Source of the DNA: Myxococcota bacterium
GTDB taxonomy: Bacteria; Myxococcota_A; Polyangia; Nannocystales; Nannocystaceae
Assembly: GCA_039028615.1 (NCBI GenBank)
Contig: JBCCHT010000002.1
Coordinates: forward strand, 352,001-416,000
Length of the DNA stretch: 64,000 bases
Direction of reading: 5' to 3'
Shown: positions 45,712 to 64,000 of the stretch, in pieces
Position numbering within the stretch: position 1 is the stretch's first letter
Layout: each line of letters starts with the position of its first letter
Notes under the pieces: model-generated
Seen by the model: only the letters and a program-made list of their open reading frames with translations
What the model was told of the DNA's origin: nothing
Databases searched by the model: none
Translations under genes and position numbers: made by a program

Positions 45712-45785
45712 CGCCTAGACCCTACACCATGCCTTCGTCCCGAAAGTGTGCGTGCGTGACGGGCCAACGAGCGTTACGGTTGCCT

Positions 45786-47060: not shown

Positions 47061-47105
47061 CCTCGCCGCCTGCGGAGCAGCGTAGTTCGATGCTACGCTG
47101 CTCTC

Positions 47106-48278
47106 GTGGGGCACTCGACTCGGGCATGCGCATGGCTGCTGGGCACCACGCTGGTGCTCGTCGCCGGCTCCGCCCGCGCCACCGATGGGGTCGAGCCGCG
47201 GATTCCTCCCGACTGGACGGACCCCGCGTGCATCCAGATCGTCGACCGCAGCGCGGGCAGCAGCACCATCAACCTGCCCTACTCGATCCTCGAGGAAGAC
47301 CTCGACATTCCCAATGAAGAGGTCGAGGACAGCCGACGGCACCAGTTCTTCGCGTTCTGCCGCTCCTATCCGCTGACGCGCTACCTCCCCACCTGGATCA
47401 CCCAGGCCGACATCGACCGCGCCGACCTGGTCGGTCTCGGGCCCACGGGGGTCGAGGTCGGCGACCTGCTCGAGGAAGACCCGGCGTGGGACGACTGCTG
47501 GTTTCGGATCACCGAAGACGACGATCGCCGCCCGATCTCCTTCGATGTCGCCGCGGCCGGGGTCGACTGGGACACCTCGCAGGTGCCCGCGGGGACCTAC
47601 CTGGTCGAGGGCTACACCTGGTTTCCGCCCTTCAACGAGTGGAACGACCGCGCCGGGGTGATCAAGGTCGTCGACGAGCCCGACCTCGCGGCGAGCGGCC
47701 CCGCCATCGCCATCTCCAATGGTGAGGAAATCGTGTTCCTCGACGAGACGGTCACCATCGAGGGCTGCGTGAGCGCGATGGAAGGGTCCACGATCGACGC
47801 CTACTACGCGCTCAACGAGCTTCCCGAGCAATGGGTGGCGTTCGCCGAGGACGAGCCGGTCGACACGGAGAGCTTCGCCATCGAGCTGGCACCCCCCGAA
47901 GAGCTGTTCGGGGAGTCGCTCATGGTGCGCGTGGAAATCACCGACCCCATGGGGCGGAGCTTCGTGCACCACATGCGCGAGTTCGTGGTCTTGCTCGAGA
48001 GCTCCGGCCCCGGCAGCTGCGACGAAGGCGGGTTCATCGGCGGCGCAGGGTGCCAGGGCACCGACGACGGGAGCAGCGAAGGACCCGCGGACACCGATGG
48101 CATGGCGGCCGACTCCACCGCGGGCACGACGGCGAGCTCCGCCACCGAGTCGGACTCGAGCACACCACAAACGGGGCCCGGCAGCGGCTGCGGCTGCAAC
48201 CAATCTCCGGGCCGCGCACCGGGAACGCTGGCGCTCGGGTTGTGGGCGCTGCTCGGTCGACGTCGTCGCCGACGCTAG
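47106..48278 (+). CDS. secreted protein with MYXO-CTERM-type sorting signal
   Basis: Signal peptide ending ARA; C-terminal GCGC...LALGLWALLGRRRRRR. Confidence 0.8.
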   Translation: MGHSTRACAWLLGTTLVLVAGSARATDGVEPRIPPDWTDPACIQIVDRSAGSSTINLPYSILEEDLDIPNEEVEDSRRHQFFAFCRSYPLTRYLPTWITQADIDRADLVGLGPTGVEVGDLLEEDPAWDDCWFRITEDDDRRPISFDVAAAGVDWDTSQVPAGTYLVEGYTWFPPFNEWNDRAGVIKVVDEPDLAASGPAIAISNGEEIVFLDETVTIEGCVSAMEGSTIDAYYALNELPEQWVAFAEDEPVDTESFAIELAPPEELFGESLMVRVEITDPMGRSFVHHMREFVVLLESSGPGSCDEGGFIGGAGCQGTDDGSSEGPADTDGMAADSTAGTTASSATESDSSTPQTGPGSGCGCNQSPGRAPGTLALGLWALLGRRRRRR

Positions 48279-48320
48279 CGCTCGCTCTGCCGTCGACGGC
48301 GAGTGCTACCATGCCCCCGC

Positions 48321-50420
48321 ATGAGCACCCGGCCGCGCCATCCCGGGCTGGGAGTGGATACCCAGCACGATCTGGCCGAGCAGAACATGCGCAACCGGCT
48401 GGCGACGTCGCTATTCGGTGAGTCGCACATGCCGGTCAAGGTCGACCGCTACGTGGTGCTGCAAGAGCTCGGCGCGGGCGGCCTGGGGGTCGTGTATGCC
48501 GCCTACGACCCCAAGCTCGATCGTCGGGTCGCGCTCAAGCTCATCAACCCCGCCCGACTCACCCCGGCCGCGGCGCAACGCATGCAGCGGGAGGCCCAGG
48601 CGATGGCCCAGCTCGCGCATCCCCACGTGGCCACCATCCACGACACGGGGACGCACGGCGACGGCACCTTCATCGCGATGGAGCTGGTCGATGGCGTGAC
48701 GCTGTCCCGCTGGACACGGCAGCAGGACCGCACCTGGAAGGAGATTCGCGACGTGCTCAGCGGCGCCGGTCAGGGCCTGGCCGCGGCGCATCGCGAGAAC
48801 CTGATCCACCGCGACTTCAAGCCGGCCAATGTCCTGGTGGATGCCCACGGCCGCGCGCGGGTCCTCGACTTCGGTCTCGCGTGTGCGGCCGACGAGGTGC
48901 CGTCGGTGGGGCTCGATGGCTCCACCAGCGTGCTGGGCGACGCCATCACCGAGACGGGCATCTTGATGGGCACGCCCCGCTACATGTCGCCCGAGCAGTT
49001 CGCGGGTCGGGCCGATGCCCGCTCGGATCAGTGGGCGTTCTGCGTCGCGGCGTGGGAGCTGCTGTATCGGACCCCGCCCTTCACCGCGCCCGACGTGCCC
49101 AACCTCCGGCAGGTGGTGAACTCCGGGCACATTCCCCCGACGCCGCCGGACTCCCCCGTCCCCGGGTGGCTGGAGCGAGTGCTGCGGCGAGGCCTCAGCG
49201 TCGACCCGGCCGCCCGCTTCGCCGACATGGACGCGCTGCTCACCGCCATGGATCGCGACAAGCGATCGCGGCGCAGGCAACGACTCGGCGTGGCGGCGGC
49301 GGTCGTGCTCTCGGCAGCGCTGACCGGTACGCTGATGTTGCTCTATCGCCCGGAGCCGACCGGCGAGTCTCGGGCCCGGGTCGAGCAGTACGACCAACAA
49401 GCACGAGCGGCCGCGGCCGAGGGACGGTTTGTCTACCCCGCCCCCGATGCCCCGCAAGAGCCCACCGCCTTCGCCCGCGTGGTCGCCCTCGAGCAGATCG
49501 AAGGGCCGAGCCGCGCCGAGGCCCAGACGCGTGCGGCCGCCCTGCGCGAGGAGCTGGCGCAGACGCTCGTGGACTTGGGGGACGAGTACACCGACCGCTC
49601 GGGCGGGGCTTCGTTCGCCGCCGACTACTACGCCGCGGCGCTCATCTTTGCGCCCGACCACCCCCGCGCCCGCGGCCGCTCCACCTTGACCCCGGGGGAG
49701 CTGTCGGCCCTGCGACACAAGGCCGAAACGGCGGAGTTCTCCGGCGCCGAGCTGGCCGGCGCCCAAGTCCTCGCCGCGCTCGCCGAGCCGAACGAGCCGG
49801 AGCGCGCGGCCAAGATCGCGGCCCTGTACGACGGCTCCAATGCCCCCGCCGCGAGCACCAGCATGCACCTCGAGGAGCTGCTGGGCTCACCGCCTCGACG
49901 CGCGGCCAAGACCCGTCGACGCAAAGCCCCGACCCCTCGCGCCGACCCGGCGCCACCCCCCGCCGCCGCCGACGAGACGCCTCCCGAAGCGGCCGCCCCG
50001 ACCCCGCCTCCGGCTCCAACCCCCCTCGGTCGCGATCAGGGCCCGCGCAACCCGGCCGCGGCCGCGGCGGAGACCAAGCGAGGTCGGGCCGCCCTCGCCC
50101 GCGGGGACGATGCTGCCGCCGAGACCTCGTTCTTCCGCGCGCTGAGCTTCGACCGCCGCAACGTCGGCGCCCAGCTCGGCCTGAGCGAGCTGTACTTCGA
50201 TCGCGGCTCGTACCAAAAGTCGCTGAGCTACGCCCGCAAGGCAGTCAAGGCGGCCCCTCGCAACGGCGCGGCTCACATGCAGCACGGCGACGCGTGCTTC
50301 AAGGTCCATCGCTACGACGAAGCTCGGGCCGCGTATGTCGAAGCCCAGCGGCTGTCGCAGGCGGGCGCCACCCGTGCGCTCGAGCGGCTCGATGCCAAGC
50401 TGAAGAGCAGCTCCGGCTGA
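48321..50420 (+). CDS. Ser/Thr protein kinase with TM segment and C-terminal TPR
   Basis: LGAGGLGVV, VALK, HRDFKPAN, DFG, GTPRYMSPEQ; TM segment; Pro linker; TPRs. Confidence 0.9.
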   Translation: MSTRPRHPGLGVDTQHDLAEQNMRNRLATSLFGESHMPVKVDRYVVLQELGAGGLGVVYAAYDPKLDRRVALKLINPARLTPAAAQRMQREAQAMAQLAHPHVATIHDTGTHGDGTFIAMELVDGVTLSRWTRQQDRTWKEIRDVLSGAGQGLAAAHRENLIHRDFKPANVLVDAHGRARVLDFGLACAADEVPSVGLDGSTSVLGDAITETGILMGTPRYMSPEQFAGRADARSDQWAFCVAAWELLYRTPPFTAPDVPNLRQVVNSGHIPPTPPDSPVPGWLERVLRRGLSVDPAARFADMDALLTAMDRDKRSRRRQRLGVAAAVVLSAALTGTLMLLYRPEPTGESRARVEQYDQQARAAAAEGRFVYPAPDAPQEPTAFARVVALEQIEGPSRAEAQTRAAALREELAQTLVDLGDEYTDRSGGASFAADYYAAALIFAPDHPRARGRSTLTPGELSALRHKAETAEFSGAELAGAQVLAALAEPNEPERAAKIAALYDGSNAPAASTSMHLEELLGSPPRRAAKTRRRKAPTPRADPAPPPAAADETPPEAAAPTPPPAPTPLGRDQGPRNPAAAAAETKRGRAALARGDDAAAETSFFRALSFDRRNVGAQLGLSELYFDRGSYQKSLSYARKAVKAAPRNGAAHMQHGDACFKVHRYDEARAAYVEAQRLSQAGATRALERLDAKLKSSSG

Positions 50421-50424
50421 GGGC

Positions 50425-51498
50425 TCAGAATCGGCCCTGGACCCACAGCGAACCGAGTCCCGGAGCCAGCTGGATCCTCGCCGTCGAGCGCTCTTCGCCG
50501 CGGCGACGCGGCCGAGTCGCCACCGTCAGGCCGATGCCCGTCGCGAGCAGCACACCGCCGACCACCGCCAGGCCGATGCCCGCCTCGGCGGTGGCGTAGA
50601 TGAACCGGCAGTTGCCGTTGGGATCGACATCCGCGCCGGAGCACTGCACTCGGTTGGGCTGACCGTCGATCACGATCAGCGGGACCCCCACCACCAGGGC
50701 CGCGCCGCCGATGCCCAACGCCGACCACCCCAGCGCCCGCATGCGTTGCCGTCGCTTGGGGCGAGGCACAGGCTCGAGCGTCACCTGCACGCGATCGCGG
50801 ACGCCGGCCACCGCCTCGAGCTGACGCTGCTCGGACACGTAGCCATCGAGCTGCGCTTCCACCCGGTGCGGCCCGGGCTCGACCACGCGCTCGAAGGGCG
50901 TCTGCCCCACGATTTCCCCGTCGAGCACCACCACCGCGCCGGGCGGGATGCTGTCGAAGACCAACACGGGAGGCTCGAGGCTCAGGGCGTCGAGCCGCGC
51001 GCCGATGGCCGCGGCCTGACTGTCGATGACCTCCACCACCTCGGAGAACCCGCAGACCTCGCAGCGCTCTCGGCTCTGGGCCACGCTGCGCTCGGTCTGG
51101 GCGTCGATGACATCCACGACGATGGTGAAGTCGCGGCGCTCCGCCACCACCCGCATGTGCACGGCGTGATGGGTCTGCGCCCGGCGAGCCCGCTGAGCTC
51201 GACATGCGATGGTCTCGCACGCGGCATCGCTGGGCTCGGCCACGGCCACCTGGACCCCGCCCCGCACGAGCCCTTCCTGGAGGGCGCGGGCCAGCTCGGC
51301 GCGGCGCGCCTCCGGGAGCATCGCATCGCCTTCGATCTGCGCGGGCAGCAGCAAGACCGCCCCCGACGCGGACGTCGGCTGCGGCGGGGGTTCGACCACG
51401 GGCGGCGGGCTGGCGTGCGCCGTCGCGGTCTGCAGAGCGACCCCGAGCACCACCCACGGTGCTCGAGACCCTCGGCCATGCTGTGGCGTCCCCCGCAT
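50425..51498 (-). CDS. PEGA domain protein with C-terminal hydrophobic segments
   Basis: FDSIPPGAVVVLDG..VGQTP....EPGPHRVEAQLDGY PEGA motif. Start uncertain. Confidence 0.8.
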   Translation of the reverse strand: MRGTPQHGRGSRAPWVVLGVALQTATAHASPPPVVEPPPQPTSASGAVLLLPAQIEGDAMLPEARRAELARALQEGLVRGGVQVAVAEPSDAACETIACRAQRARRAQTHHAVHMRVVAERRDFTIVVDVIDAQTERSVAQSRERCEVCGFSEVVEVIDSQAAAIGARLDALSLEPPVLVFDSIPPGAVVVLDGEIVGQTPFERVVEPGPHRVEAQLDGYVSEQRQLEAVAGVRDRVQVTLEPVPRPKRRQRMRALGWSALGIGGAALVVGVPLIVIDGQPNRVQCSGADVDPNGNCRFIYATAEAGIGLAVVGGVLLATGIGLTVATRPRRRGEERSTARIQLAPGLGSLWVQGRF

Positions 51499-51549
51499 TC
51501 GAGCCCGCAGCCTACCCACCTCGGACCCAAAGCCCAAGGCGGCGGGCTC

Positions 51550-52629
51550 TCAGGCGCTCGGATCGGCGCTGGGCGACGCGCCGCCCTTGCCCTCGGGATC
51601 GAAGGCCTCGAGCTCGGCGCTGATCTTCTCCAAGAATCGACGCTTCTCGTGGAACGGCAGGAACGCGCTCTTGAAGCCATTGAGGATCACCTGGTGCAGG
51701 TCCTCGAGCGAAAAACCCATCTCGCTGTGCATCAGGTGCATCTCCTCGGACACCGTCGTATCGGTGATCAGCCGGTTGTCGGTGTTCACGGTGACGCGAG
51801 CGCCGAGGTTGAAGTAAAGGCGCATCGGGTGCGAGCCGAGGCCCTCGACCGCCCCCGTCTGCACGTTGGACTTCGGGCAGCACTCGAGCGGGATCCGATG
51901 ATCGACCACGTAGTGCAGCAGATCACCATCCTCGCGCAGCCGGCAGCCATGGCCGATGCGGTGGGCCCCACAAATGTGCAGGGCCTGGGCGATCGACGGG
52001 GGGCCGTAGGCCTCGCCCGCGTGAATCGTGACGTTGATGTTGTTTTGACGCACCAGCTGAAACGCGTCCTGGTGCTCCTTGGCGGGGTGGTCGTCCTCGG
52101 CCCCGGCCAGATCGAAGCCGACCACACCTCGGTTTTTGTAGGCGACCACCAGCTCGGCCATCTCGAGCGATGACGCGGGCGAGATGTTTCGAATGCCGCA
52201 GACGATGATGCGACTGACGATGCCGTACTTCAGCTCGGCGTCGTACAGGCCCTTGAGCACCGTCTCCACCACCGTGGTCAGGCGCAACCCTTGCCGGGTG
52301 TGCAGCATGGGGGCGTAGCGCACCTCCATGTAGCGAACGTTCTCACGTGCGGCGTCCTCGGCGAGCTCGAAGGCGGCCCGGTACAGGGCTTCCCGCGTCT
52401 GCAGCACCTGCAGCGTGACTCCGAAGGCCTCTAGATACTTGACCAGGCTGCCCGTGTTCTCGCCGATGTGCATCGCCGCCCGCAGACCTGCGACATCGGA
52501 GGCGGGCAGTTCGATGTTTTGCTCGCGCGCCAGGTCGAGCACCGTTTCGAGCCGCATCGAGCCATCGAGGTGGACGTGCAGATCGGTCTTGGGAAGGCGC
52601 TGGAAGACCGAAAGGGGCAGCGAATTCAT
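51550..52629 (-). CDS. add: adenosine deaminase
   Basis: LPKTDLHVHLDGS, YMEVRYAP, GFDLAGAE, TIHAGE, RIGHG, NTDN. Start ATG 52629. Confidence 0.92.
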   Translation of the reverse strand: MNSLPLSVFQRLPKTDLHVHLDGSMRLETVLDLAREQNIELPASDVAGLRAAMHIGENTGSLVKYLEAFGVTLQVLQTREALYRAAFELAEDAARENVRYMEVRYAPMLHTRQGLRLTTVVETVLKGLYDAELKYGIVSRIIVCGIRNISPASSLEMAELVVAYKNRGVVGFDLAGAEDDHPAKEHQDAFQLVRQNNINVTIHAGEAYGPPSIAQALHICGAHRIGHGCRLREDGDLLHYVVDHRIPLECCPKSNVQTGAVEGLGSHPMRLYFNLGARVTVNTDNRLITDTTVSEEMHLMHSEMGFSLEDLHQVILNGFKSAFLPFHEKRRFLEKISAELEAFDPEGKGGASPSADPSA

Positions 52630-52825
52630 GCAGACTTCTAACGCCCTCGTGGGCACCGCGCTAGGGCCACGCCGCGAGATCACACACCGGGCATGGAGAA
52701 GGGGGTTTTTGCCCCACAAAGGGCGGCTATCGGGCCGCTGTCGGCGCGTAGCGGGGGACGGATCGCGATGGATCGGGGCCCAGCCAATGCCCTAGACTTA
52801 GCGCTCGATTCGAGGTCATCGCCCG

Positions 52826-53548
52826 TTGTTCTCGCCCACCTCCGAGGGTTCCCCTGCTCCTCGGTCGCGCTCTTGGCTGCGCGGCGTGGGATCGATCGCT
52901 CTTTTGGGGTGCGCGACTGCGAACATCGGCGGCTGCGTTCGCGAGCCCCATGCGTGCGAGCTTCAGCTCGAGCGAGGCGACGTCATCATCACCGAGATTC
53001 GGGGCCCCCAAGACGGCACCGACACCCGCGGCGAATGGTTCGAGCTTTACAACGCCACCGACGCGATGGTCGACCTGTTCGGCCTGCGCGGTGAGCTCGT
53101 GAACCTGCGGGGCTCCATCGAGATCAACTTCATCGTGCGCGAGTCGTTGCCCGTGGGCCCCGGCGAGTACGTGGTGCTCGGCAGCCTCGCCAATGCGCCC
53201 CCCGAGGTCGACTACAGCTTCAACGACGACTTCGCGGTCGAGCCCCGTCTCGAGGACTCCGACGGCACGCTCGTGGTGCCCGTCGGCGAAGACAGCGACC
53301 CGCGCGAGCTGTTCTCCAACGCCCGCGTCGAGCTGTTCGCCTGCGACCAGCTGATCGAGACGGTCATCTACGAGCAGCTGCCGGCCGCGGGCACCTTCAG
53401 CTTCGACGGCGCGCGCAGCCCGAGCGCCGACGACAACGACGACCTGAGTCACTGGTGCACCAACGACGCCGAGGCGCCCGAAGACGGACCCCAAACCGAG
53501 ATCGGACTGCCCGGGTCTCCGGGGGAGGCCAACCCGCCATGTCCCTGA
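52826..53548 (+). CDS. lamin tail domain (LTD) lipoprotein
   Basis: Cys after a hydrophobic leader; GDVIITEI...GEWFELYNAT...VDL.GL...GSPGEAN LTD signature. Confidence 0.8.
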   Translation: MFSPTSEGSPAPRSRSWLRGVGSIALLGCATANIGGCVREPHACELQLERGDVIITEIRGPQDGTDTRGEWFELYNATDAMVDLFGLRGELVNLRGSIEINFIVRESLPVGPGEYVVLGSLANAPPEVDYSFNDDFAVEPRLEDSDGTLVVPVGEDSDPRELFSNARVELFACDQLIETVIYEQLPAAGTFSFDGARSPSADDNDDLSHWCTNDAEAPEDGPQTEIGLPGSPGEANPPCP

Positions 53549-54858
53549 CCTCGGTGAAATCCCTGGTGGCCGGCTGCGGCCTCGTGCTGCTCGGCTCCTG
53601 CACTCCGCGGGGCACGGTCCACTACGACCGCACCAAGCTGGCCGAGAGCCTCGCCAACGAGCAGAGCGACTCGGGCCTCGTCGTCGGCGAGTTCGTGCTC
53701 GCCAGCCCCGCGGTGGTCGATGGCGACACGATCAAGGTGGTCGGCATCGAGGGCACCCTGCGCCTGCTCGGCATCGACACCGAAGAGACCTTCAAGAGCG
53801 ACAAGGACCGCCGCGCCTACGACGACGGCTTCGAGCAGTACCTCGCCAAGAAGCAAGAGGGCCACGACCGACCCATCAAGGCGGCAACGCCCCTGGGCAT
53901 GGACGCCAAACACTGGGCCGAGGAGTTCTTCGAGGGCATCCGCACCGTTCGGCTCGAGCGCGACCATCCCAAGGAGCTGCGCGGTCGCTACGGACGCCTG
54001 CTGACCTACGTCATGGTCGAGAAGGACGGCGAGTGGCTCAACTACAACGTCGAGTCCGTGCGCGCGGGGATGAGCCCCTACTTCTCGAAGTACGGCTACT
54101 CGCGACGCTTCCACGACGAGTTCGTGCAGGCCCAAGAAGAAGCCCGCGCCGCCAAGCGAGGCATCTGGGACCCCGCGCTCGAGCACTACCCCGACTATGA
54201 CCTGCGGCTGCGCTGGTGGGACGCCCGCGCCGAGGTCATCGCCCAATTCGAAGAGCAGGGCCAAGGCCGCGAGGACTGGGTCGTGCTGACCAACTGGGAT
54301 TCCCTCGATCGGCTCGCCGGGCTCGAGGGGCGCGAGGTCACCGTGCTCGCCACCGTGGGCGACATCTACCCCTCCAAGGGCAAGGGCCCCGCCCGGGTGA
54401 TGCTCTCGCGTCGCATGTTCAGCGATTTCCCGCTGATCTTCTTCGACGACGAGGTGCTCGAGACCTGCGGCGTCGACAAGGCCCGCGGCGAGTTCGTGCA
54501 GGTGCGCGGCACCGTGAGCCGCTACGAGTTCCGCTCCAAGCGCAAGCGCGCCCGTAAGAAGGACGCGAACGAGCAGCCGCCCTCGCAGCTCCAGATGCAG
54601 ATCCGCCGACCGGAGCAGATCGCATTCATCGACACGCGGCCGGCCCAGATCGCGGGGGGGTATGCCCCGCGGATGCCGGAGCCCGCGCCCGAGCCGGTGG
54701 TCGACGACGCGCCCCCGCCCGTGCCCGATCCGACCCAAGCCGCCCCCACGGGCGCCGAGCCTCCGCCGCCTCCGCCCGTCGAGCCCGACTCGAGCGTGCA
54801 GCAAGCCCCCGTCGGCGACGACTCGCCCGAACAATCTCCGCCCGCAGTGGCCCCCTAG
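53539..54858 (+). CDS. thermonuclease (SNase) lipoprotein with C-terminal OB-fold-like domain and Pro-rich tail
   Basis: LLGSC lipobox; VVDGDT, RLLGIDTEE, RYGRLLTYV, EARAAKRGIW; then GREVTVLATV...GEFVQVRGTVSRY...LQMQIRRPEQI. Confidence 0.88.
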   Translation: MSLTSVKSLVAGCGLVLLGSCTPRGTVHYDRTKLAESLANEQSDSGLVVGEFVLASPAVVDGDTIKVVGIEGTLRLLGIDTEETFKSDKDRRAYDDGFEQYLAKKQEGHDRPIKAATPLGMDAKHWAEEFFEGIRTVRLERDHPKELRGRYGRLLTYVMVEKDGEWLNYNVESVRAGMSPYFSKYGYSRRFHDEFVQAQEEARAAKRGIWDPALEHYPDYDLRLRWWDARAEVIAQFEEQGQGREDWVVLTNWDSLDRLAGLEGREVTVLATVGDIYPSKGKGPARVMLSRRMFSDFPLIFFDDEVLETCGVDKARGEFVQVRGTVSRYEFRSKRKRARKKDANEQPPSQLQMQIRRPEQIAFIDTRPAQIAGGYAPRMPEPAPEPVVDDAPPPVPDPTQAAPTGAEPPPPPPVEPDSSVQQAPVGDDSPEQSPPAVAP

Positions 54859-54889
54859 GTCCGTCACCCCCGAGACACACGAGGACACG

Positions 54890-57706
54890 ATGTCGAAACA
54901 TCCCATTGTTCGAGCCCTGCCCTGGGCGCTGGTCATGGGCTCCGCTTTGCCCGCGTGTGGCGGCGACGACCTCGCCCGCCCGCCGGGGGCCTGCGAGTCC
55001 GGACTGCTCGTCGGCGACCTCGTGATCACCGAGATCATGGCCGACCCCCCGGGCGCCGACTCCGGCCGGGAGTGGTTCGAGATCTACAACGCCAGCGCCA
55101 CCGAGTTCGACCTGCGCGGGCTGGTGTTGCTGCACAGCCGCGAGGACTCGACCGACGCCAACGTGCACGAGATCGGCCGCAGCCTGACGCTGGGGCCCGA
55201 CGACTACGCGGTGGTCGGCGGCCTGCTCGACGACGAAGACGTGCTCGCCGTCGTGCCCTACATCGACTACGGCTACGGGGGCGACCTCGGCGACATGCGC
55301 AACAGCGCGGGGCGCTTGGTCGTGGCCTGCGGGGACGAGATCATCGACGAGGCCCTCTACAACGACCCCACCCCGAATCACTCGCGCAGCTTCACGGGGG
55401 ACCGCGCCCCCGATGCCAACGCCAACGACGACCTGAGCTTGTGGTGCGACTCGAGCTCGGAGATCGACGCCGAGGGCTTCGGCACCCCCGGGGCCTCCAA
55501 CGACATCTGCGTGGGCACGGGCGGGCCCGTCTCCTGCATCGACAACGGCGTGCTGCGAGAGGCCCGAGCCCCCGAGGCGGGCGACCTGGTCATCACCGAG
55601 GTGCTCTCCGACCCGGCCGCCGCCGAGGACGACAGCGCCGAATGGTTCGAGGTGCGGGTCAACGCCGACATCGACCTCAACGGCCTGGCCATCGGCAAGC
55701 AGTCGAGCTTCGAAGACGCCGAGCCCGTGACCGGCAACGACTGCGTCCCGGCCTTGGCCGGCACCCGCCTGGTGTTTGCACGCAGCGCCGACTCCGAGCT
55801 CAACGGCGGGCTCCCCAACGTCGACATCGAGTTCGGCTTCTCGCTCAATCAGTCCGACAACCAGGTCGTGCTCAGCTACGGCAACCTGCTGGTCGACACC
55901 TTCCCCTACGGGAGCTCGTCGCCCGGGGTGGCCCACAACCTCGATCCCGACTTCGAGAATACCGACGACAACGACGACGAGCGCTACCACTGCGACGCGA
56001 CGTCGACCTACGGAGCCGGCGATTTCGGCACGCCCGGGGCGCCCAATACCGAGTGCGAGATTCCACCGCCCGAGGGCCAGTGCCTCGACGGGGAGTCCTT
56101 CCGCGACATCGTCCGGCCGCAGCCGGGTGACCTGCTGGTCACCGAGATCATGGCCAACCCCGAGGCGGCCGGCGAAGAGAGCGAGAGCGAGTGGTTCGAG
56201 CTGCGCGCCACCGCCGACTTCGACCTCAACGGGCTCGAGCTCGGCACCGAGGAGGGCAAGCCCCGCGACGTCGTCGAGGCCACCGAGTGCCTGAGCATGG
56301 GCGCGGGGGACCACGTGGTGGTCGCTCGCGAGACGGACCCCGCCATCAACGGTGGGCTCCCGGTCGTCGACGCCACCTTCGGCTTCGCGCTGACCAACTC
56401 CAACGGTGCGCTGTGGATCGGAAGCGGCGGCACCACCCTCGACCTGGTGACCTGGGCCTCCGTGCCCGCAGGCGCCTCCCGCAGCCTCGACGCCAGCATC
56501 ACCGATCCGGGCGCCAACGACCCGGACGAGGTCTGGTGTGAGGGCCTCGAGCCCTTCGGCGATGGCGACCTCGGCACGCCGGGCGCGGAGAACCCCGTGT
56601 GCGGCGGCATCCCGACCGGCACCTGCCTCGACGGCGGCCGCGAGCGCGACCTGGTCCGGCCCGCCGTGGGGGAGCTGGTCATCACCGAGCTGATGCCCAA
56701 CCCGGCCGCGGTCAACGACTCCGAGGGCGAGTGGTTCGAGCTGCTGGCCACGGCGAACGTCGACCTCAACGGGCTGCGCTTCGGGGACGACCCCGCCGAC
56801 GCACCCAGCCGCGACAACAGCCTGCCCGCCGGGGGCGACTGCATCAGCGTCAGCGCAGGTGAACGGGTCATCCTCGCGCGCAACGCCGACACCATGGCCA
56901 ACGGCGGCCTGCCCGAGGTCGTCGGCACCTTCAGCTTCGGCCTGGTCAACGGCGGCGGGGCCCTGTTCGTCGGCATGGGCGACGAGGTCATCGACGACAT
57001 CACCTGGACGGGCAGCGCGGCGGGAGTCGCCCTGACCCTCGACCCCATGGCCGAGGACGCGGTCTCCAACGACGACCCGGCCAACTTCTGCGCCGCCACC
57101 GAGCCCTACGGCGATGGTGACCTGGGCAGCCCGGGCGCGCAGGGAGCCGCCTGCGGCGGTGGGGGCGGAGGAGACGGCATGTGCGACGACGGGGGCATGC
57201 CCCGCGCCATCGTGGCCCCCACCGTGGGCGACCTGGTCATCACCGAGGTCATGCCCAACCCGAGCGCGGTCGCGGATTCCTCCGGCGAGTGGTTCGAGGT
57301 CCTGGTCACCGCCGACGTCGACCTCAACGGCCTCGAATTCGGCGACACCCCGGGCGCTCCCGATGGGACCCTCGCCTCGGGTGGAGCCTGCATCGCGGTG
57401 ACCACCGGCCAGCGCCTGGTGTTCGCACGCAATGCCGACGCCATGGCCAACGGGGGCCTGCCCGCGGTCGACCAGACCTTCAGCTTCGACCTCGTCAACG
57501 GCGGTGACGACCTCTTCGTCGGCGTCGACGGCATGGTGCTCGACCAGATCTCCTGGTCGAGCAGCAGCGCGGGCACCAGCATCTCGCTCGACCCCGCCGC
57601 CGAGGACGTCGTGGCCAACGACGATGCCGCCAACTTCTGCGCGGGCGTCGACCCCTACGGCGACGGAGACCTGGGCACCCCCGGTTCGGTCAACCCCGCG
57701 TGCTGA
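54890..57706 (+). CDS. lipoprotein with five tandem lamin tail domains
   Basis: ALPAC lipobox; five G(D/E)L(V/L)(I/V)TE...P...EWFE...DL(N/R)GL...G(T/S)PG units with Cys-containing linkers. Confidence 0.85.
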   Translation: MSKHPIVRALPWALVMGSALPACGGDDLARPPGACESGLLVGDLVITEIMADPPGADSGREWFEIYNASATEFDLRGLVLLHSREDSTDANVHEIGRSLTLGPDDYAVVGGLLDDEDVLAVVPYIDYGYGGDLGDMRNSAGRLVVACGDEIIDEALYNDPTPNHSRSFTGDRAPDANANDDLSLWCDSSSEIDAEGFGTPGASNDICVGTGGPVSCIDNGVLREARAPEAGDLVITEVLSDPAAAEDDSAEWFEVRVNADIDLNGLAIGKQSSFEDAEPVTGNDCVPALAGTRLVFARSADSELNGGLPNVDIEFGFSLNQSDNQVVLSYGNLLVDTFPYGSSSPGVAHNLDPDFENTDDNDDERYHCDATSTYGAGDFGTPGAPNTECEIPPPEGQCLDGESFRDIVRPQPGDLLVTEIMANPEAAGEESESEWFELRATADFDLNGLELGTEEGKPRDVVEATECLSMGAGDHVVVARETDPAINGGLPVVDATFGFALTNSNGALWIGSGGTTLDLVTWASVPAGASRSLDASITDPGANDPDEVWCEGLEPFGDGDLGTPGAENPVCGGIPTGTCLDGGRERDLVRPAVGELVITELMPNPAAVNDSEGEWFELLATANVDLNGLRFGDDPADAPSRDNSLPAGGDCISVSAGERVILARNADTMANGGLPEVVGTFSFGLVNGGGALFVGMGDEVIDDITWTGSAAGVALTLDPMAEDAVSNDDPANFCAATEPYGDGDLGSPGAQGAACGGGGGGDGMCDDGGMPRAIVAPTVGDLVITEVMPNPSAVADSSGEWFEVLVTADVDLNGLEFGDTPGAPDGTLASGGACIAVTTGQRLVFARNADAMANGGLPAVDQTFSFDLVNGGDDLFVGVDGMVLDQISWSSSSAGTSISLDPAAEDVVANDDAANFCAGVDPYGDGDLGTPGSVNPAC

Positions 57707-58194
57707 TGCGTTCACCGACCAAGATCATGGGGGCCGGCCTGGTGCTCGGGCTGGCCCTGGGAGTGGCCTGCAGTGACGGGCCCGAGTGTGGTCCCACCGA
57801 GGCCGTCGTGGCGCGGGTCATCGATGGCGACACCATCGAGCTCGAGTCCGGGGAGCGGGTGCGCTACCTGCTGGTCGACACGCCCGAGCTCAGCGGCGGG
57901 GGCGAGTGCTACGGGCTCGAGGCGGCCGAGTTCAACCGCTCCGCCGTCGAGGGCGAGACGGTCACGCTGTCGTACGACACCGAGTGCACCGACGGCTTCG
58001 ATCGCCTGCTCGCCTATGTGCAGCTGCCCAGCGGGCGCCTCGTCAACGAGGTCCTGCTCGAGCGCGGCCTGGCCTGCGTGCTGCACATTCCGCCCAACGG
58101 TGAAGATCGCGTCGATGAGTTTCGCGCCATCGAGGCTCAGGCCCGCGCGGGCCAGAACGGCCTGTGGGGCATGTGCACGGAGGCGCCGTGCTGA
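57706..58194 (+). CDS. thermonuclease (SNase) lipoprotein
   Basis: LGVAC lipobox; VIDGDT, RYLLVDTPE, DRLLAYV, GLA, ARAGQNGLW. TGATG overlap with the LTD gene. Confidence 0.9.
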   Translation: MRSPTKIMGAGLVLGLALGVACSDGPECGPTEAVVARVIDGDTIELESGERVRYLLVDTPELSGGGECYGLEAAEFNRSAVEGETVTLSYDTECTDGFDRLLAYVQLPSGRLVNEVLLERGLACVLHIPPNGEDRVDEFRAIEAQARAGQNGLWGMCTEAPC

Positions 58195-60458
58195 GCAGGC
58201 TCGGTCGAGGGCTCGCGCTGTCCGCCCTGCTGCTGGGCGCTGCGTGGCCCATGACCGCCCGCGCCGTCGAGTACGAGGTCTTCGTCGACGTCGATGACGA
58301 AGAGGACCTCAACGAGCTGCTGCTCACCGAGCAGGTAAGCGAGACCACCTACGAGACCCTCGTGGAGCTCATGCGTCGGGGCACCGACCTCAACCGAGCC
58401 TCCCGCGAAGACCTCTACGCGCTGCCCAACCTGACCTACGACGAGGTCGATGCGATCTTGGCGTATCGCGACGACGCGGGGCGCATCGCCGACCCGGCGG
58501 ACCTGGTGGTGGCCAACGTCATCAGCCGACGCAAGCTCGCCGCCATCGCCTCGTTCCTGCTCGTGCCCGATGCCAAGGGCTCACGCGGGGCCGTGCACGG
58601 CCTGGTCCGCTACCGGATGACCTACGTCGCCCAGGACCCGCGCGTGCCTCCCATGGCCCTGCAGGCGCGCGTGCGGGCGTTCGGCAACCTCACCGTGGGC
58701 GGGGCCGCCGTGCTCGAGCCCCAGCTGCTCGCGCCAGTGCGCTGGGACCCCAACCGCGCCGCCCTGGTGGCCGAGGGCGACCAGGTGCGCCCCCGGGTGC
58801 CCAAGCTCTTCGCCCAGTGGGAGACCGACCGCTGGGGCGTCATCGCGGGTACCTACCGCATCGGCTTCGGCCAGCGCCTCACCTTCGACAACAGCCGCCG
58901 CTACACGCCGAACGGCTTCTACCTCGACGACGCGCTCATCGCTCGCTACGACCTGACCCGCCTGTGTCGCGAGTCCGCGGGCGAGCTGCGGGTCTCCCCC
59001 TGCGACGACGACGATCGCCGCGTCGCCCCGTCGTTTCGCTTCAGCCCCGGCCTGACCGGTGTGGCGGGCGGAGCCAAGAAGCTGCCGCTGCCCGTGGGGT
59101 GGTTTCAGGCCTACGGGTTCTGGTCGATGCAGACGCACGACCTGTACCAGTACCGAATCTACGAGCGCGACCGGTGTGAAGACCCGCGCAGCGACGACGC
59201 CTCGTGCGAGTCGCCCGCGCTGTACAACCCCACCGAAGGCACGCTCGATCCCTCGAGTCGGCACGTGTTCCGCACGCTGCCCCGCACCGTCGACCTCATC
59301 ACGCAGGGTGCCAACCTCGGTTGGTACAACGACTCGCGAACCCACGTCGGCGTGACCGGCTACGGCACCATTCCCCGCTGGCGCATCGACGGCGCGGCTC
59401 TCGACTTCAAGCCGGCCGAGCGCTTCCCCCGGGGCGGTGCCTTCGGGGCGGTGGGGGCCGACTTTTCGTGGGGCTACCGCTGGGCCGACGTCTTCGGCGA
59501 GGTCTCGCGCAGCTTCGACGGCACCGATCCCTCGCAGGGCGGCGGGGGTGGCTTCGCCGGCATCCTGCGGCACACCGCCTCGTGGAACGACCAGGAGCTC
59601 GAGGTCAGCGCGCGCTACTACGACTCGCGCTACTCCAACCCCTACTCCCGTCCCATCTCCGCGCGCGACCGCTTCGAGGGCAACCAGGCCCGCGACGAGG
59701 CGGGCGGGCGGGTCCGCTACACCGCCCTGCTCGCGCAGAAGGTCAGCCTGCGGACCTTCGCCGACTTCTGGGTGCGTCCCTCCACCCTCGAGCCGCGCAC
59801 TCGCGTCTACGCCCGCGCCGACGTCGATGCCACCAAGTGGTGGCGTCCCGGCCTGTGGCTCGAGTACCAGAACAACGACCTGGGGCGCCCCAACTTCACC
59901 GATTGCCGCGACGTCTCCATCGAGGCCGGTGACGTGCTGGGGCTGCCCGACGAGGCGATCATCTGCGGAGGCCAGCGCGTGCAGCTGACCGCGCGCTCGC
60001 GCTTCGCCCCCATCCGTCGGCTGTACTTCACGCTCCAGTATCGCCACGAGTTCCAGAACTCGCTGTTCGCCGACACCCAGTTCTCCCGTTCGGGCGCCAC
60101 CGACGACGACATCGACTTCGAGACCTTCGACATCTTCGACGAGGCCGACCTGGCGCGGCTGCAGGCCAATAACCGCCTGCGCCAGGACACCAACGCCTTC
60201 GTCCAGGTCGTCGCCAAGCCCATCGATCCGCTCCGCCTGCGGGCGCGGGTGCGGTGGTTTTGGGAGGACATCACCGACAACTCGCGCCTCGAGCACTCGG
60301 TGTGGACCTACTTCGAGGCGCAGTACAAGATTCGCCCCTGGGCGGTGCCGATGATCCGGTACAGCATCTTCGCCTACGTCGATCGCCGCGACAGCACCGC
60401 CACCCGCTCGCCGAACCCCGAACACTGGATCGCGCTGCAGTTCCAGTCGCGGTTCTGA
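58188..60458 (+). CDS. ComEA-like helix-hairpin-helix protein with predicted outer-membrane beta-barrel
   Basis: Signal peptide (ARA); DLNRASREDLYALPNLTYDEVDAILAYRDDAG HHH_3-like motif; G.YRIGFGQRL and many aromatic alternating strands; ends in LQFQSRF. GTG start after GGAGG, overlapping the SNase stop. Confidence 0.8.
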   Translation: MLSRLGRGLALSALLLGAAWPMTARAVEYEVFVDVDDEEDLNELLLTEQVSETTYETLVELMRRGTDLNRASREDLYALPNLTYDEVDAILAYRDDAGRIADPADLVVANVISRRKLAAIASFLLVPDAKGSRGAVHGLVRYRMTYVAQDPRVPPMALQARVRAFGNLTVGGAAVLEPQLLAPVRWDPNRAALVAEGDQVRPRVPKLFAQWETDRWGVIAGTYRIGFGQRLTFDNSRRYTPNGFYLDDALIARYDLTRLCRESAGELRVSPCDDDDRRVAPSFRFSPGLTGVAGGAKKLPLPVGWFQAYGFWSMQTHDLYQYRIYERDRCEDPRSDDASCESPALYNPTEGTLDPSSRHVFRTLPRTVDLITQGANLGWYNDSRTHVGVTGYGTIPRWRIDGAALDFKPAERFPRGGAFGAVGADFSWGYRWADVFGEVSRSFDGTDPSQGGGGGFAGILRHTASWNDQELEVSARYYDSRYSNPYSRPISARDRFEGNQARDEAGGRVRYTALLAQKVSLRTFADFWVRPSTLEPRTRVYARADVDATKWWRPGLWLEYQNNDLGRPNFTDCRDVSIEAGDVLGLPDEAIICGGQRVQLTARSRFAPIRRLYFTLQYRHEFQNSLFADTQFSRSGATDDDIDFETFDIFDEADLARLQANNRLRQDTNAFVQVVAKPIDPLRLRARVRWFWEDITDNSRLEHSVWTYFEAQYKIRPWAVPMIRYSIFAYVDRRDSTATRSPNPEHWIALQFQSRF

Positions 60459-60626: not shown

Positions 60627-61829
60627 ATGGGCGTGAACAAGGCAGCAGCACTCGGGGCAGGCATGGCGATGACGATGCTGGCGACCGGCTGCGTCGAGCG
60701 CCTCATCTACGACCACGTCTGCGGCAACGGCATCGTCACCCCGGGCGAGCTGTGCCTCGGCCTGGGGGATCGCCGCGAGGTGGTGGTCGACACCCTCGCG
60801 CCGCTGTCGTTGCGCACGGGCGACTTCAACGGGGACCTGAACGCCGACCTCATGGTCTTGGGCACCGAGCCCTCGGGCATCGTCGCGGCGCGGCTGTGGC
60901 TCGGTGACGGCGACGGTGGGCTCTCCCCTCCCCTCGACCCCGGCGTCGGGGGGTGCAGTGCTCATCCCGTGGCGGGCTCGCTCGGCGACGACACGGCCGA
61001 CGACCTGCTCGTCGATGACTGTGGGCCTTCGGTCTCGTTGTTTCGCGGCACCAGCAGCGGCACCTTCCAGTCCGCGCTGACGGTGGTCACCGGGGTCGCG
61101 ACCCACGGCTCCGGCATGATCGACCTCGACGACGATGGCCTGCACGACGTCGTCATCTTCGGCTCGCTGCCCGAGGACCAGGGCGGCCTCGCGCTGGCCG
61201 TGGCCCAGCAGACCTCGCCCGGCGTGTTCCGGCCCCCTTCGATCAGCAACGTCGAAGGCGGCCCGCTCGGCCTCGAGCCCAACGGATGGAGCATGCTCGA
61301 CTACGACGGCGACCCGCACCGCGACGTCATGCTCGTGCAGTCGGATCTCCCGGGGGGCATCGCCATCAGCCGGGGGCTGGACAACTTCAACTTCAGCGCG
61401 CCCGAGCCGGTGGGTCCGCCCGGGCTTCAGGTCAGCTGGGCCGCCGTGCGAGACCTCGATGGCGACGGCACCGAAGAGGTGCTCGCCGCCAGCTACGACG
61501 CCCAAGCGCTCATCGTGCTCGACTTCGACGACGGGCTGCTCGTGGAGCGACGCCGTAGCTCGATCCCTGGCCTGCAGCCCAGCCCCATCGCTCTCGACGA
61601 CGTCGACGGCAACGGCACGCTCGACCTCGTCCGCGTCGAATCGGGCGTGACCAACCTCGACGTCTGGCAGGGGCAGGAGGACGGGCGCTTCACCGGGCCC
61701 ACCTCGATCGATCTCGACGCCCCCATCGATCAGCTCGCCCTGACCGACCTCGACAACGACGGGGTGCTCGACATCGTGGCCGGGAGCTTCGGTGAGTCCC
61801 GGGTCCGGGTGCTGCTCAGCGATCCCTGA
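60627..61829 (+). CDS. FG-GAP/VCBS repeat lipoprotein
   Basis: LATGC lipobox; GDFNGDLNADL, DLDDDGLHD, DYDGDPHRD, DLDGDG, DVDGNGTLD, DLDNDGVLD. Confidence 0.88.
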   Translation: MGVNKAAALGAGMAMTMLATGCVERLIYDHVCGNGIVTPGELCLGLGDRREVVVDTLAPLSLRTGDFNGDLNADLMVLGTEPSGIVAARLWLGDGDGGLSPPLDPGVGGCSAHPVAGSLGDDTADDLLVDDCGPSVSLFRGTSSGTFQSALTVVTGVATHGSGMIDLDDDGLHDVVIFGSLPEDQGGLALAVAQQTSPGVFRPPSISNVEGGPLGLEPNGWSMLDYDGDPHRDVMLVQSDLPGGIAISRGLDNFNFSAPEPVGPPGLQVSWAAVRDLDGDGTEEVLAASYDAQALIVLDFDDGLLVERRRSSIPGLQPSPIALDDVDGNGTLDLVRVESGVTNLDVWQGQEDGRFTGPTSIDLDAPIDQLALTDLDNDGVLDIVAGSFGESRVRVLLSDP

Positions 61830-61985
61830 GACGGCTGGAGCAAAGGCAACGTTCCTGCACCAGCGAGCGTGTTTTCGGTGAGGTCCACGGGGATGCGACG
61901 GCCGAACGGGCCCACTTTGGTGCGAGCGCGCGCCAATCGGTCACTCACCGGTTGCCGCGCCAACGCGGGGCAGTAGCATGGAGGC

Positions 61986-63008
61986 ATGAGTGGAGGGGCA
62001 CGGGCCTGGGTCGGAGCGACCATCGTGGCCCTGGGTCTCGGCATCGCGACGGGAGTCGGGTGCGGGCGCTCGCCCGTATGGCTGCCCTGCGATGGGCTTG
62101 AGACGGTCGAGAACGTGCCCGCGCTCAGCTGCGATCACCCCGCGTGTGCCTCGGCGACCTCGCTGTACCTCGATATCGGGGCCGATAACGTGCTCATCGT
62201 GCAGGACCGCTCGTGTTCGATGGCCGAGCTCATCGATGGGCGCAACAAGTGGTCCCGGGCCGTCGAGGCGCTGGTGGGCGTGCTGACCGACCCGCGCTCG
62301 ACCACCGTGCGATGGGGGCTCTCGCTGTTTCCCGACGGCAACAACGACGGGATCCAGGGACCCATCATCGTGCCGGTCGCGGCCGGCCAGAGCGGGACGA
62401 TCGCCGCCCTGCTGACCAACGCGCTGGACCGCAACGATCGAAACCACCCGCAGCAACCCGGCGAGGGCTGCTTCACCAACCTGGCGGACGCGCTCGATCA
62501 GGCGGCCGACCCCCGCGTCTTCTCCGGCCTCGACGGCAGCAGCCACCTGTTGCTGATCACCGATGGCTTCGCGCGACACGGCGGCGAGGTTGCCTCCAGC
62601 CTGGTGAGCATCCTGCAAGAACTCCACGATGAGGGCACCCCCACCTTCGTGGTGGGCTTCGGCGCGCGGGTCAGTACCAACACGCTCAATGCCCTCGCCC
62701 GCGCGGGTGGGGTGCCGGCCTCGGCCAGCACGGGCTACTACGACGCGGGCCTCGAGGACCTCAGCGGCGCCCTGCTCGAGGTCGTGCAGGGGCTCCGCTG
62801 CCGCCACCGCATCGACCTGCCGCCCGAGGACGTGTCCCGCCTGCTGGTGCGATGGGCCGACGACACCTTCATCCCCGCCGCCCCCAACGGGGGAGACGGG
62901 TGGCGCTACGACGTGGAGCTGGGCGCCCTGGTGTTCTCGGGCTGGGCCTGCGAGCAGCTGCTCGTCGGCGACGTCACGGGGATCGAGCTCGACCTCGACT
63001 GCGGCTAG
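61986..63008 (+). CDS. vWA domain lipoprotein
   Basis: VGC lipobox; LIVQDRSCSM, LLLITDG, TFVVGFG, LNALARAGG. Confidence 0.8.
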   Translation: MSGGARAWVGATIVALGLGIATGVGCGRSPVWLPCDGLETVENVPALSCDHPACASATSLYLDIGADNVLIVQDRSCSMAELIDGRNKWSRAVEALVGVLTDPRSTTVRWGLSLFPDGNNDGIQGPIIVPVAAGQSGTIAALLTNALDRNDRNHPQQPGEGCFTNLADALDQAADPRVFSGLDGSSHLLLITDGFARHGGEVASSLVSILQELHDEGTPTFVVGFGARVSTNTLNALARAGGVPASASTGYYDAGLEDLSGALLEVVQGLRCRHRIDLPPEDVSRLLVRWADDTFIPAAPNGGDGWRYDVELGALVFSGWACEQLLVGDVTGIELDLDCG

Positions 63009-63015
63009 CGACTCG

Positions 63016-64000
63016 CTACTCGTCCACCACGTTGATGAACATCTCCGCCAGCGCCTCGTGTCCGGCGGCCGTGGGGTGGATGCAGGTCAGGTCGAACCAG
63101 TTCTCGTTGCCTTCGCCCCGGTAGCAGACGTTGTCCGGATCCCCGGCCTTGAACCCGTGACCGCAGAATGACTCGAACATGAACACCAGGTCGGTGCCCG
63201 TCTCCGAGGCCACCCGCGCGTACTCCTCGTTGATGAGGTTGAGCGAGCCCAGCAGCAGCTCGGGGTTCTTCGGGTTGGCATCGAAGCCCGCCACGCTGGC
63301 CGCGGGACAGCTCAGCACGTCGACGGTGAAGTCGGTGTACTCGTAGACGTTGGCGTTGACCACGAACACGCCGTTGGGGAAGCGGTCGGGCTCCACCAGC
63401 CAATTGATGGCGTCTTCGTGGTGCTGGACCATCTCTTCGAGGTCGTGGAAGACATCGGCGATGGGCACGCCCGCGATCGAGTCCTGGGCGATCGATGACA
63501 CGTCGTTGCCCCCCATGGTCATGATGACCAGGGTTCGCTGATCGAAGTCCTCGACCGAGAAGCAGTCCTCCATCTGGCCCATGATGTCGTCGTTGCGAGC
63601 GCCCCAGACGGCACACGACGCAAAGTCTCCGCTCTCCTGAATGACCGAGGTCCCGCCGAAGGGGTCGAATTGCTGCCACAACGCTTGGGGTGCCTCGAGC
63701 CCGAAGCGCTCGGCCAGCTGATCGGCGACCAGGCTCCGATAGAACCCGGGCACGGGTGCGGGGGGAGTGCCCACCGTCACGGAGTCCCCCAAGAACACCA
63801 CCCGCTCGATCTCGGTGATGTCCTGGTGGTCGGTGCCCTGGCAGTGCTCGCCCACGGTCACGCCCAGCTTGGTGTAGTCGGGCCCCGGCGACTCGCCGTG
63901 CACGAACTGGTCGTTGAGGCACGCCAGCCCGCGGGGCTCCTCTTCTCCCGTGCTCGACTCCTCGCCCTCTTCTTCAGCCCCGCCCGCGGTCGTGTCCCCG
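63016..64000 (-). CDS. SGNH/GDSL hydrolase family protein, 5' end runs off window
   Basis: FLGDSVT (block I), MGGND (block III), CIHP (block V). The frame stays open from 63903 to the window edge (acidic G/E/T linker). Confidence 0.85.
   Translation of the reverse strand, partial: GDTTAGGAEEEGEESSTGEEEPRGLACLNDQFVHGESPGPDYTKLGVTVGEHCQGTDHQDITEIERVVFLGDSVTVGTPPAPVPGFYRSLVADQLAERFGLEAPQALWQQFDPFGGTSVIQESGDFASCAVWGARNDDIMGQMEDCFSVEDFDQRTLVIMTMGGNDVSSIAQDSIAGVPIADVFHDLEEMVQHHEDAINWLVEPDRFPNGVFVVNANVYEYTDFTVDVLSCPAASVAGFDANPKNPELLLGSLNLINEEYARVASETGTDLVFMFESFCGHGFKAGDPDNVCYRGEGNENWFDLTCIHPTAAGHEALAEMFINVVDE

Follow-up and report, generated by a model that had tools for sequence, protein, structure and literature searches.

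Introduction

A DNA-utilisation locus, ddbABCDEF, has been described in Bacteroides thetaiotaomicron, where the genes for secreted nucleases accompany that of a TonB-dependent transporter (Sharan et al., 10.1101/2025.03.18.642099, PMC12478041), and it is related to transformation genes of Riemerella (10.1101/2025.03.18.642099, PMC8459023; these and the other papers cited below were accessible in part, and what we say of them refers to those parts). DNA-degradation loci of Izemoplasmatales encode a protein joining a lamin-tail domain (LTD) to a nuclease (PMC8289736), and two helix-hairpin-helix (HhH) proteins, RA0C_RS02645 of Riemerella and PGN_0421 of Porphyromonas, are needed for transformation or DNA uptake (PMC8459023, PMC11532111), the second being described in the accessible text only as ComEA-like (PMC11532111). 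In soil, sediment and sludge, Myxococcota play a large part as predators and as decomposers; secreted nucleases have been reported for sludge members of the phylum, in an account whose accessible text does not contain the present locus (PMC11495043), and the literature that we searched holds no account of how Myxococcota recover nucleic acids from prey or detritus.

Here we describe a five-gene operon (genes A to E, 52826-60458) in a 64,000-nucleotide stretch, hereafter the window, of contig JBCCHT010000002.1 from a Nannocystaceae member of this phylum. Judged from sequence and structural modelling, it encodes exported nucleases of the staphylococcal nuclease (SNase) family, acidic LTD lipoproteins and a predicted 24-stranded outer-membrane barrel as one conserved unit. 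By analogy with ddb, we consider it moderately probable that this is a DNA/RNA-utilisation (feeding) locus of Myxococcota whose pore would work without TonB. The operon is real, conserved and undescribed: neither it nor the HhH-barrel family of protein E is described in the searched literature, from which subscription journals were mostly absent and whose supplements might contain screens in which a homologue was hit. An earlier note on this DNA, which knew of no described system of this architecture, was thus right about the operon, whereas the concept of DNA utilisation was already known from Bacteroidales (ddbABCDEF); the barrel family is uncharacterised.

A conserved five-gene operon

The five genes follow one another on the + strand just as the earlier note had them, with junctions of -10 nt (A/B), +31 nt (B/C), -1 nt (C/D, a TGATG overlap) and -7 nt (D/E), and all have a coding-type G+C content at third codon positions (GC3) of 0.88-0.94. 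Gene A (52826-53548, +), whose TTG start is backed by two relatives aligning from residue 1, encodes an acidic single-LTD lipoprotein of 240 residues. Gene B (53539-54858, +; 439 residues) encodes a lipoprotein with an SNase domain, an OB fold and a Pro-rich acidic tail, and gene C (54890-57706, +; 938 residues) a lipoprotein of five tandem, Cys-containing, strongly acidic LTDs. Gene D (57706-58194, +; 162 residues) specifies a small SNase lipoprotein. Protein E (58188-60458, +; 756 residues) begins with a signal peptidase I (SPI) signal at residues 1-26, followed by an acidic segment (27-62), an HhH pair (63-124) and the barrel (137-756). Export signals had been proposed for all five proteins and can be upheld by eye and by conservation, the basis on which signal peptides were assigned here. 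The lipobox cysteine at position 21 of B recurs in 32/47 and that at position 22 of D in 32/43 homologues aligning there, most C homologues have a small-residue-Cys motif shortly before the first LTD, and E has a near-invariant Ala-x-Ala ahead of the mature start; gene A offers two candidate lipobox cysteines, C29 and C37.

A GTDB genome scan with E gave 244 confirmed stretches, and the best 80 of these were retained; with 38 loci from across the phylum they make up the 118 loci used below. Neighbours were counted on six-frame open reading frames with BLAST and hidden Markov models (HMMs), and related loci are not independent of one another by kinship. The SNase profile used for neighbours misses B-type genes, which were added from separate searches. 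Within the same family E was found in 28 of 36 genomes, and among those from the other families of its class in 2 of 24. Among the best 80 of the 244 stretches, named carriers belong to Nannocystaceae, Kofleriaceae and Sandaracinaceae; cultured carriers are Nannocystis exedens DSM 71, Plesiocystis pacifica SIR-1, Enhygromyxa salina and Paraliomyxa miuraensis. Where at least 7.5 kb of upstream sequence is available, all five genes co-occur in 45 of 52 kept loci, as the operon proposal would have it; the other seven are without A (three), without A and D (two), with D in two pieces (one) or with E alone (one). Because the order is conserved and the junctions are coupled, chance clustering of A-E is rejected.

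The picture broadens across the phylum: of 150 further genomes, sampled evenly, 40 have a long E match at an E-value below 1e-70, and these gave the 38 distant loci. The phylum search as such reached 144 of 151 genomes, in most cases through the HhH alone, and only these 40 others were counted. Gene order in the 38 loci is permuted, two of them ending at a contig edge. E has an LTD protein as its neighbour in 34 (32 found by profile, one by Pfam, one divergent) and a nuclease in 28 (14 D-type SNases, eight PLD proteins, five more of B type and one divergent SNase), and on these counts the constant core is the barrel, the LTD array and some nuclease. Gene C, whose relatives carry 2-5 LTD repeats, is the most constant partner of E, and gene A is accessory, being absent in some lineages. 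The PLD partner is a single-domain lipoprotein-like protein, and the one tested has Salmonella Nuc (1byr, E-value 1.5e-13), Zucchini and NucT as its closest solved relatives. SNase and PLD partners sit on separate branches of the E tree, and the replacement of SNase by this unrelated family ties E to nucleic-acid cutting.

Several variants of the operon are worth recording. Four Nannocystaceae loci (L079, L088, L042, L045) have two multi-LTD genes in tandem, with up to nine LTDs per operon; one locus has two YscW-like lipoprotein genes between the B and LTD genes (L143:9294-10306), and in a single distant case ExbB/ExbD-like genes, recognised by eye, lie divergently upstream of E (L165:5363-9807). 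Relatives of E were found neither in plasmids nor in viral contigs, four motif matches in the latter being unrelated, and a word search from one distant E homologue gave 8 close relatives only. The names attached to ten distant relatives of E were uninformative.

Two nucleases with intact active sites

Both nucleases score over the Pfam SNase cut-off (B, 4e-12; D, 6e-17), and D aligns over its length with a thermonuclease in the Protein Data Bank (PDB; E-value 9e-15). The AF2 model of B, with a predicted local distance difference test score (pLDDT) of 90.8, superposes on staphylococcal nuclease 1sta with Z 15.5 and a root-mean-square deviation (rmsd) of 2.5 over 134 aligned residues, and its residues 212-338 retrieve the OB folds of MCM, RecG, RPA and HIN domains (Z 8-10) in a fold search. 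By alignment, B and D each hold the full catalytic set of staphylococcal nuclease, which we take to be D19, D21, R35, D40, E43 and R87 in the numbering of that enzyme. In B, D61, D63, R75, D80 and E83 are kept in 68/68 homologues covering them and R153 in 70/70; in D, the residues D40, D42, R53, E61, D96 and R100 are kept in 75/75 and D58 in 72/75. The catalytic motifs that the first reading had picked out are therefore invariant or near-invariant. The position equivalent to D83 is Gly in B, and among 70 homologues it is Gly in 44 and Asp in 26. Purifying selection on both active sites makes it likely, as judged from these alignments, that B and D are active nucleases; activity in the SNase family is calcium-dependent.

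The joining of an OB fold to an SNase domain is also the architecture of the YhcR type of Bacillus. YhcR is named in the accessible part of an earlier account (PMC6085458). At the C-terminus of B (54600-54858) the 74-residue Pro-rich acidic tail is not conserved in relatives. B-type SNase-OB genes also occur in one family that has no E, where they immediately follow a gene for an OmpA-family outer-membrane protein with TSP3 repeats (L302:4592-7583, L303:4010-7143, L306, L307), and such E-less genes are often near a ChaN-family lipoprotein gene and a CTP synthase-like gene.

The barrel of protein E and its N-terminal domain

The region of E that had been called barrel-like and ending in Phe does model as a 24-stranded outer-membrane barrel (pLDDT 85; predicted template modelling score, pTM, 0.83). 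Its 24 long amphipathic strands span residues 137-755, with turns of 2-8 residues after even strands and loops of up to 62 residues after odd ones, and the barrel runs to a C-terminal Phe that is present in 110/110 close homologues. At inward or polar-face positions, with faces assigned from alignment periodicity rather than coordinates, there are on average 28 Lys/Arg against 19.5 Asp/Glu, and 13 inward positions are Arg/Lys in >60% of 99 homologues. The acidic segment at residues 27-62, preceded by a conserved N-terminal strand, has 13 acidic and no basic residues (about 11-12 acidic across the family). In several structural alignments the aligned part opens at model residue 25-28, paired there with the in-pore helix of VDAC or with TonB-receptor plugs, a weak hint from the model that this segment may lie in the lumen, and we infer that it could serve as a gate.

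Fold searches with E return generic large barrels only (FimD, PapC, VDAC, porins, TonB receptors, MtrB) at 8-14% identity; the usher pores FimD (Z 15.0, rmsd 5.1, 369 aligned) and PapC (Z 14.2) come first, with porins and TonB receptors within about 2.5 Z of them, and a solved relative of the barrel was not found by sequence. That the top matches are 24-stranded ushers speaks for the main rival to the feeding reading, in our judgement a rather unlikely one, according to which E would be a dedicated translocon or anchor, usher- or Slam-like, by which the LTD and nuclease proteins reach the surface; external DNA would be degraded there, the products would enter by other pores, and the pseudo-HhH would be a periplasmic docking domain. 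Such a role would also fit the family-wide loss of HhH DNA-binding residues, Bacteroidota-like homologues included. The identity to ushers is, however, 8-10% and reflects strand number, neither an usher chaperone nor a Slam-type family matched E or its neighbours, and the conserved arginine-rich lumen suits anionic solutes; moreover, the cargo would need to span unrelated SNase, PLD and LTD proteins. A separate candidate identity, that of a TonB receptor, is rejected for E: it models with 24 strands rather than 22 and has an HhH N-terminus, and Pfam and NCBIfam give no plug or TonB-receptor family match on it at an E-value of 0.1.

As the earlier note had seen, a ComEA-like HhH domain is fused to the barrel: residues 65-124 match HHH_3 with 28 bits against a Pfam cut-off of 27, and ComEA is the closest among solved structures (Geobacillus ComEA 8dss, E-value 8e-14). 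The DNA binding of ComEA, which the same note had extended to E, is not transferable. In the 8dss alignment the second Gly of the HhH1 hairpin is T83 and the essential Lys of ComEA (K166 in Geobacillus) is E86; Gly and Lys are kept together in 0/110 close and 0/99 diverse homologues, the Lys position is Asp/Glu in 104/110 close homologues, and a basic second HhH is limited to close relatives. In ComEA this Lys is essential in V. cholerae (K63) and B. subtilis (K164) (PMC3879209, PMC9747964), and the V. cholerae changes K63E and G60V/E abolish transformation (PMC3879209). A caveat is that two stand-alone ComEA-like genes of the same genome keep the second Gly and are also without Lys at the exact position. 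E as a canonical ComEA is rejected, as a 756-residue barrel fusion with the DNA-binding Gly and Lys replaced and a TIGR01259 (ComEA) score of 14.3 bits against a cut-off of 152.

The kinship of this domain to ComEA, the presence of comEC and dprA elsewhere in this genome and the relation of the ddb transporter to the Riemerella transformation system all favour a different role, namely pilus-independent uptake of long DNA for natural transformation, with E as the entry and with B and D sizing DNA that then feeds ComEC. We regard this as improbable. The substitutions in E mimic ComEA mutants that are unable to transform (PMC3879209), and DNA meant for transformation would not survive two active sugar-non-specific nucleases. 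In addition to its two stand-alone ComEA-like genes the genome encodes three secretins, and comEC is absent from the annotated neighbourhoods of the Myxococcota loci, for which part of the neighbours were scanned.

Lamin-tail domains and the question of a binder

Pfam PF00932 finds five LTDs in C (104 bits) and one in A (E-value 6e-6, 27 bits, below the curated cut-off of 34.3), the latter 32% identical to the first repeat of C, and all align as six LTDs, the number counted earlier. A profile search found no solved relative of the C-type LTD. Each repeat carries 2-10 Lys/Arg against 25-40 Asp/Glu, or about 25 more acidic than basic residues, and this composition argues against direct DNA binding without cations. 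In ExeM of Shewanella the LTD aids activity but is not required, and its role is given as unknown in the accessible text (PMC6085458). Since the HhH binding residues are replaced and the LTDs are acidic, the assignment of both as DNA binders in the earlier note is unsupported, and the OB domain of B is a better candidate nucleic-acid binder than either.

The same LTD-containing nuclease, ExeM, acts on biofilms (PMC6085458), which gives some support to a further alternative: the operon might encode a surface nuclease array that remodels biofilm or slime DNA, eases gliding or prey contact, or destroys foreign DNA, with E only as an anchor and nutrition incidental. Salvage genes are, in keeping with such an array, missing from 87/118 loci, of which many have short flanks. 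We think this distinctly unlikely, as it leaves unexplained both the large conserved pore and the adjacency of NupC, adenosine deaminase (ADA), thymidine kinase (TK) and UPRT genes in Nannocystaceae.

Relatives of E outside Myxococcota

The ESM Atlas lists Bacteroidota and Spirochaetota clusters at 0.95-0.97, and a metagenome scan with a sequence motif, which makes for a motif-biased sample, gave at least 120 stretches, 80 of them listed. These are labelled Bacteroidota-like from their G+C content and from neighbours such as PorD. Within this set, 79 of the 80 listed proteins match the E profile at E-values <= 1.1e-4, many of them in the barrel away from the motif, and the HhH is likewise degenerate where the pattern located it. 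Two features of these loci bear on the alternatives above. A PorV-family barrel gene, below the NCBIfam cut-off, lies upstream in 48 of the 80 listed loci, and the PorV family comprises secretion shuttles, a point in favour of the translocon. In 11 of the 80, comEC stands directly downstream or one gene on, as uptake for transformation would predict, but this link is confined to one 13-row clade. The pair of PorV-family gene and E homologue appears unannotated (L182-L261, e.g. L242:4575-8726 and L211:4597-8717).

Taken at its widest, the family could represent a new class of outer-membrane nucleic-acid channel, independent of TonB and of pili, in which a 24-stranded arginine-lined barrel would be gated by an acidic, DNA-mimicking pseudo-ComEA N-terminus. 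Such a class, founded by E, would extend over Myxococcota, Bacteroidota-like bacteria and, on the Atlas clusters, Spirochaetota, serving feeding where it is paired with nucleases and LTDs and competence where it is paired with comEC. We put this forward as a doubtful proposal.

Nucleoside salvage and a feeding model

A salvage gene lies in the fetched flank of 31/118 loci: NupC in 18, ADA in 15, an HPRT-like gene in 11, TK in 10 and UPRT in 3. All 15 loci with ADA belong to the Nannocystaceae clade of the E tree, and beside NupC there occur, as alternatives, ADA in some subclades and TK with UPRT in another. In the present genome an HPRT-like gene is found some 6 kb beyond E, where the window has already ended.

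The feeding reading, which we favour, can be put as a sequence of steps. The lipoproteins A-D would be anchored in the outer membrane, where the LTD arrays may serve as calcium-loaded spacers or scaffolds that keep DNA or nucleases near the surface. Nucleic acids from lysed prey, detritus or biofilm would be cut, at the surface or in the periplasm and calcium-dependently, to oligo- and 3'-nucleotides by D and by B, the latter gripping the substrate with its OB domain. The anionic fragments would then cross E, independently of TonB, by way of the arginine-lined lumen; the acidic N-terminus and pseudo-ComEA domain of E would probably gate the pore or dock a partner, rather than act as a ComEA-like DNA ratchet. 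Periplasmic phosphatases encoded elsewhere would yield nucleosides, which could enter by NupC and be salvaged by adenosine deaminase, thymidine kinase, UPRT and HPRT. The nucleic-acid utilisation locus that the earlier note had modelled on polysaccharide utilisation loci (PULs) thus stands as far as co-occurrence, intact nuclease residues, the barrel, nuclease swapping and salvage genes go, and is unsupported in its HhH/LTD binder.

Several observations weigh against feeding. The best fold matches of E are ushers, the residues by which ComEA holds DNA have become T83 and E86, and the LTD repeats are strongly acidic. Two of the 38 distant loci (L145, L147) show no LTD or nuclease beside E in spite of long flanks, neither an LTD nor an SNase neighbour was detected by profile or BLAST for any of the 80 listed Bacteroidota-like homologues (0/80), and B-type nucleases occur without E in 8/13 genomes of one family. 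On the salvage side, 28 of the 31 linked loci fall in one 47-row clade, so that the linkage is close to a single historical event and the adjacency, strong as it is, is a nearly single historical signal; in this genome NupC and TK are encoded on contigs other than that of the operon, and no nucleotidase was found in the operon among the neighbours scanned.

Two further genes near E may be mentioned here. In four related loci (L086, L087, L093, L119) an 885-residue calcineurin-like phosphoesterase protein is encoded downstream of E and could supply the nucleotidase step; in six Nannocystis-type loci (L106-L108, L111, L085, L096) a gene for a 2OG-Fe(II) dioxygenase, which possibly acts on modified bases or nucleosides, follows NupC upstream.

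Genes around the operon

An adenosine deaminase gene (51550-52629, -; Pfam A_deaminase 5e-100, TIGR01430 above cut-off), absent from the earlier note, is divergent from the operon and starts 196 nt upstream of gene A. Divergent promoters are expected in the intervening region (52630-52825), where the promoter scan found no sigma-70-like site; terminator-like matches fall inside genes. On the other side, 168 nt 3' of E, lies the gene for an FG-GAP repeat lipoprotein (60627-61829, +; Pfam), a lineage-restricted neighbour that is present in 9/118 loci; it is rejected as a core member on this count and is probably outside the system.

A Ser/Thr kinase gene with TPR repeats converges with a gene for a PEGA-domain protein, situated behind that for adenosine deaminase (48303-51537); both are typically myxobacterial and not conserved with the operon. 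More exported proteins are encoded at 45489-48278 and 60627-63999; they comprise FG-GAP and VWA lipoproteins, a GDSL hydrolase and two proteins without annotation, of lipoprotein or surface type. Just past the window (416389-419293 in contig numbering), glycosyltransferase-28-like and HPRT-like genes lie 4-6 kb 3' of E, and the two recur downstream in several Nannocystaceae loci.

Comparison with known systems

Each component has described relatives from which it can be set apart. First, B and D share the full catalytic set of the SNase family (PF00565), and B joins an OB domain to the nuclease; they differ as lipoproteins of a diderm that are paired in a barrel operon, and they score below the NucI and EcnA cut-offs. 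Second, residues 63-124 of E share the HhH pair fold and sequence pattern of ComEA (TIGR01259; 8dfk, 8dss; V. cholerae), which is small and periplasmic or membrane-tethered, whereas in E the pair is fused to an outer-membrane barrel and has Thr in the hairpin and Asp/Glu for the Lys. The Bacteroidota proteins RA0C_RS02645 and PGN_0421 are likewise HhH proteins with a role in DNA uptake; they are described as periplasmic, with the HhH at 236-301 and 94-165, respectively, whereas the barrel family has it at about 60-120 of 680 residues, a distinction drawn from the accessible descriptions of these proteins. Third, FimD/PapC ushers, MtrB and TonB-dependent receptors share with E a large monomeric outer-membrane barrel of 22-26 strands, at 8-14% identity and an rmsd of 4-7 A and with no accessory domains in common. 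The 24-stranded barrel of the chaperone-usher proteins FimD and PapC is also that of E; the usher family, its Ig-like N- and C-terminal domains, and chaperone and pilin families gave no match on E or the operon genes. Fourth, Shewanella ExeM and the Izemoplasmatales loci bring LTD, OB and nuclease domains together near nucleoside transport (PMC6085458, PMC8289736); in those cases the LTD shares one protein with an EEP or other nuclease, and the accessible descriptions include no outer-membrane barrel, whereas here the LTDs form stand-alone tandem arrays.

The closest described system as a whole is ddbABCDEF. In the accessible account, it resembles the present locus in combining an outer-membrane barrel with nucleases that are lipoproteins, with further lipoproteins in accessory roles and with an OB-like module for DNA binding, and also in its link to nucleobase or nucleoside metabolism and its kinship with transformation systems. 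Its barrel is DdbC, a TonB-dependent transporter, accompanied by DdbD (DUF5689), whereas E is 24-stranded with an HhH-like N-terminus, and Pfam and NCBIfam give no DUF5689 or TonB-receptor match on genes A-E; the nucleases here are of the SNase or PLD family and the accessory proteins are LTD arrays. The likeness, drawn from described features, would be one of analogy and not of homology, and with a different barrel, nucleases and accessory domains the locus is not a member of the ddb system. It nevertheless gives a widespread, unannotated family of HhH-barrel outer-membrane proteins, and tandem bacterial lamin-tail arrays, their first functional context, and it offers a route of nucleic-acid recovery that is testable in cultured strains. 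If E conducts nucleic acids, it would add a third outer-membrane route to the two known ones, the pilus-secretin and the TonB-dependent systems.

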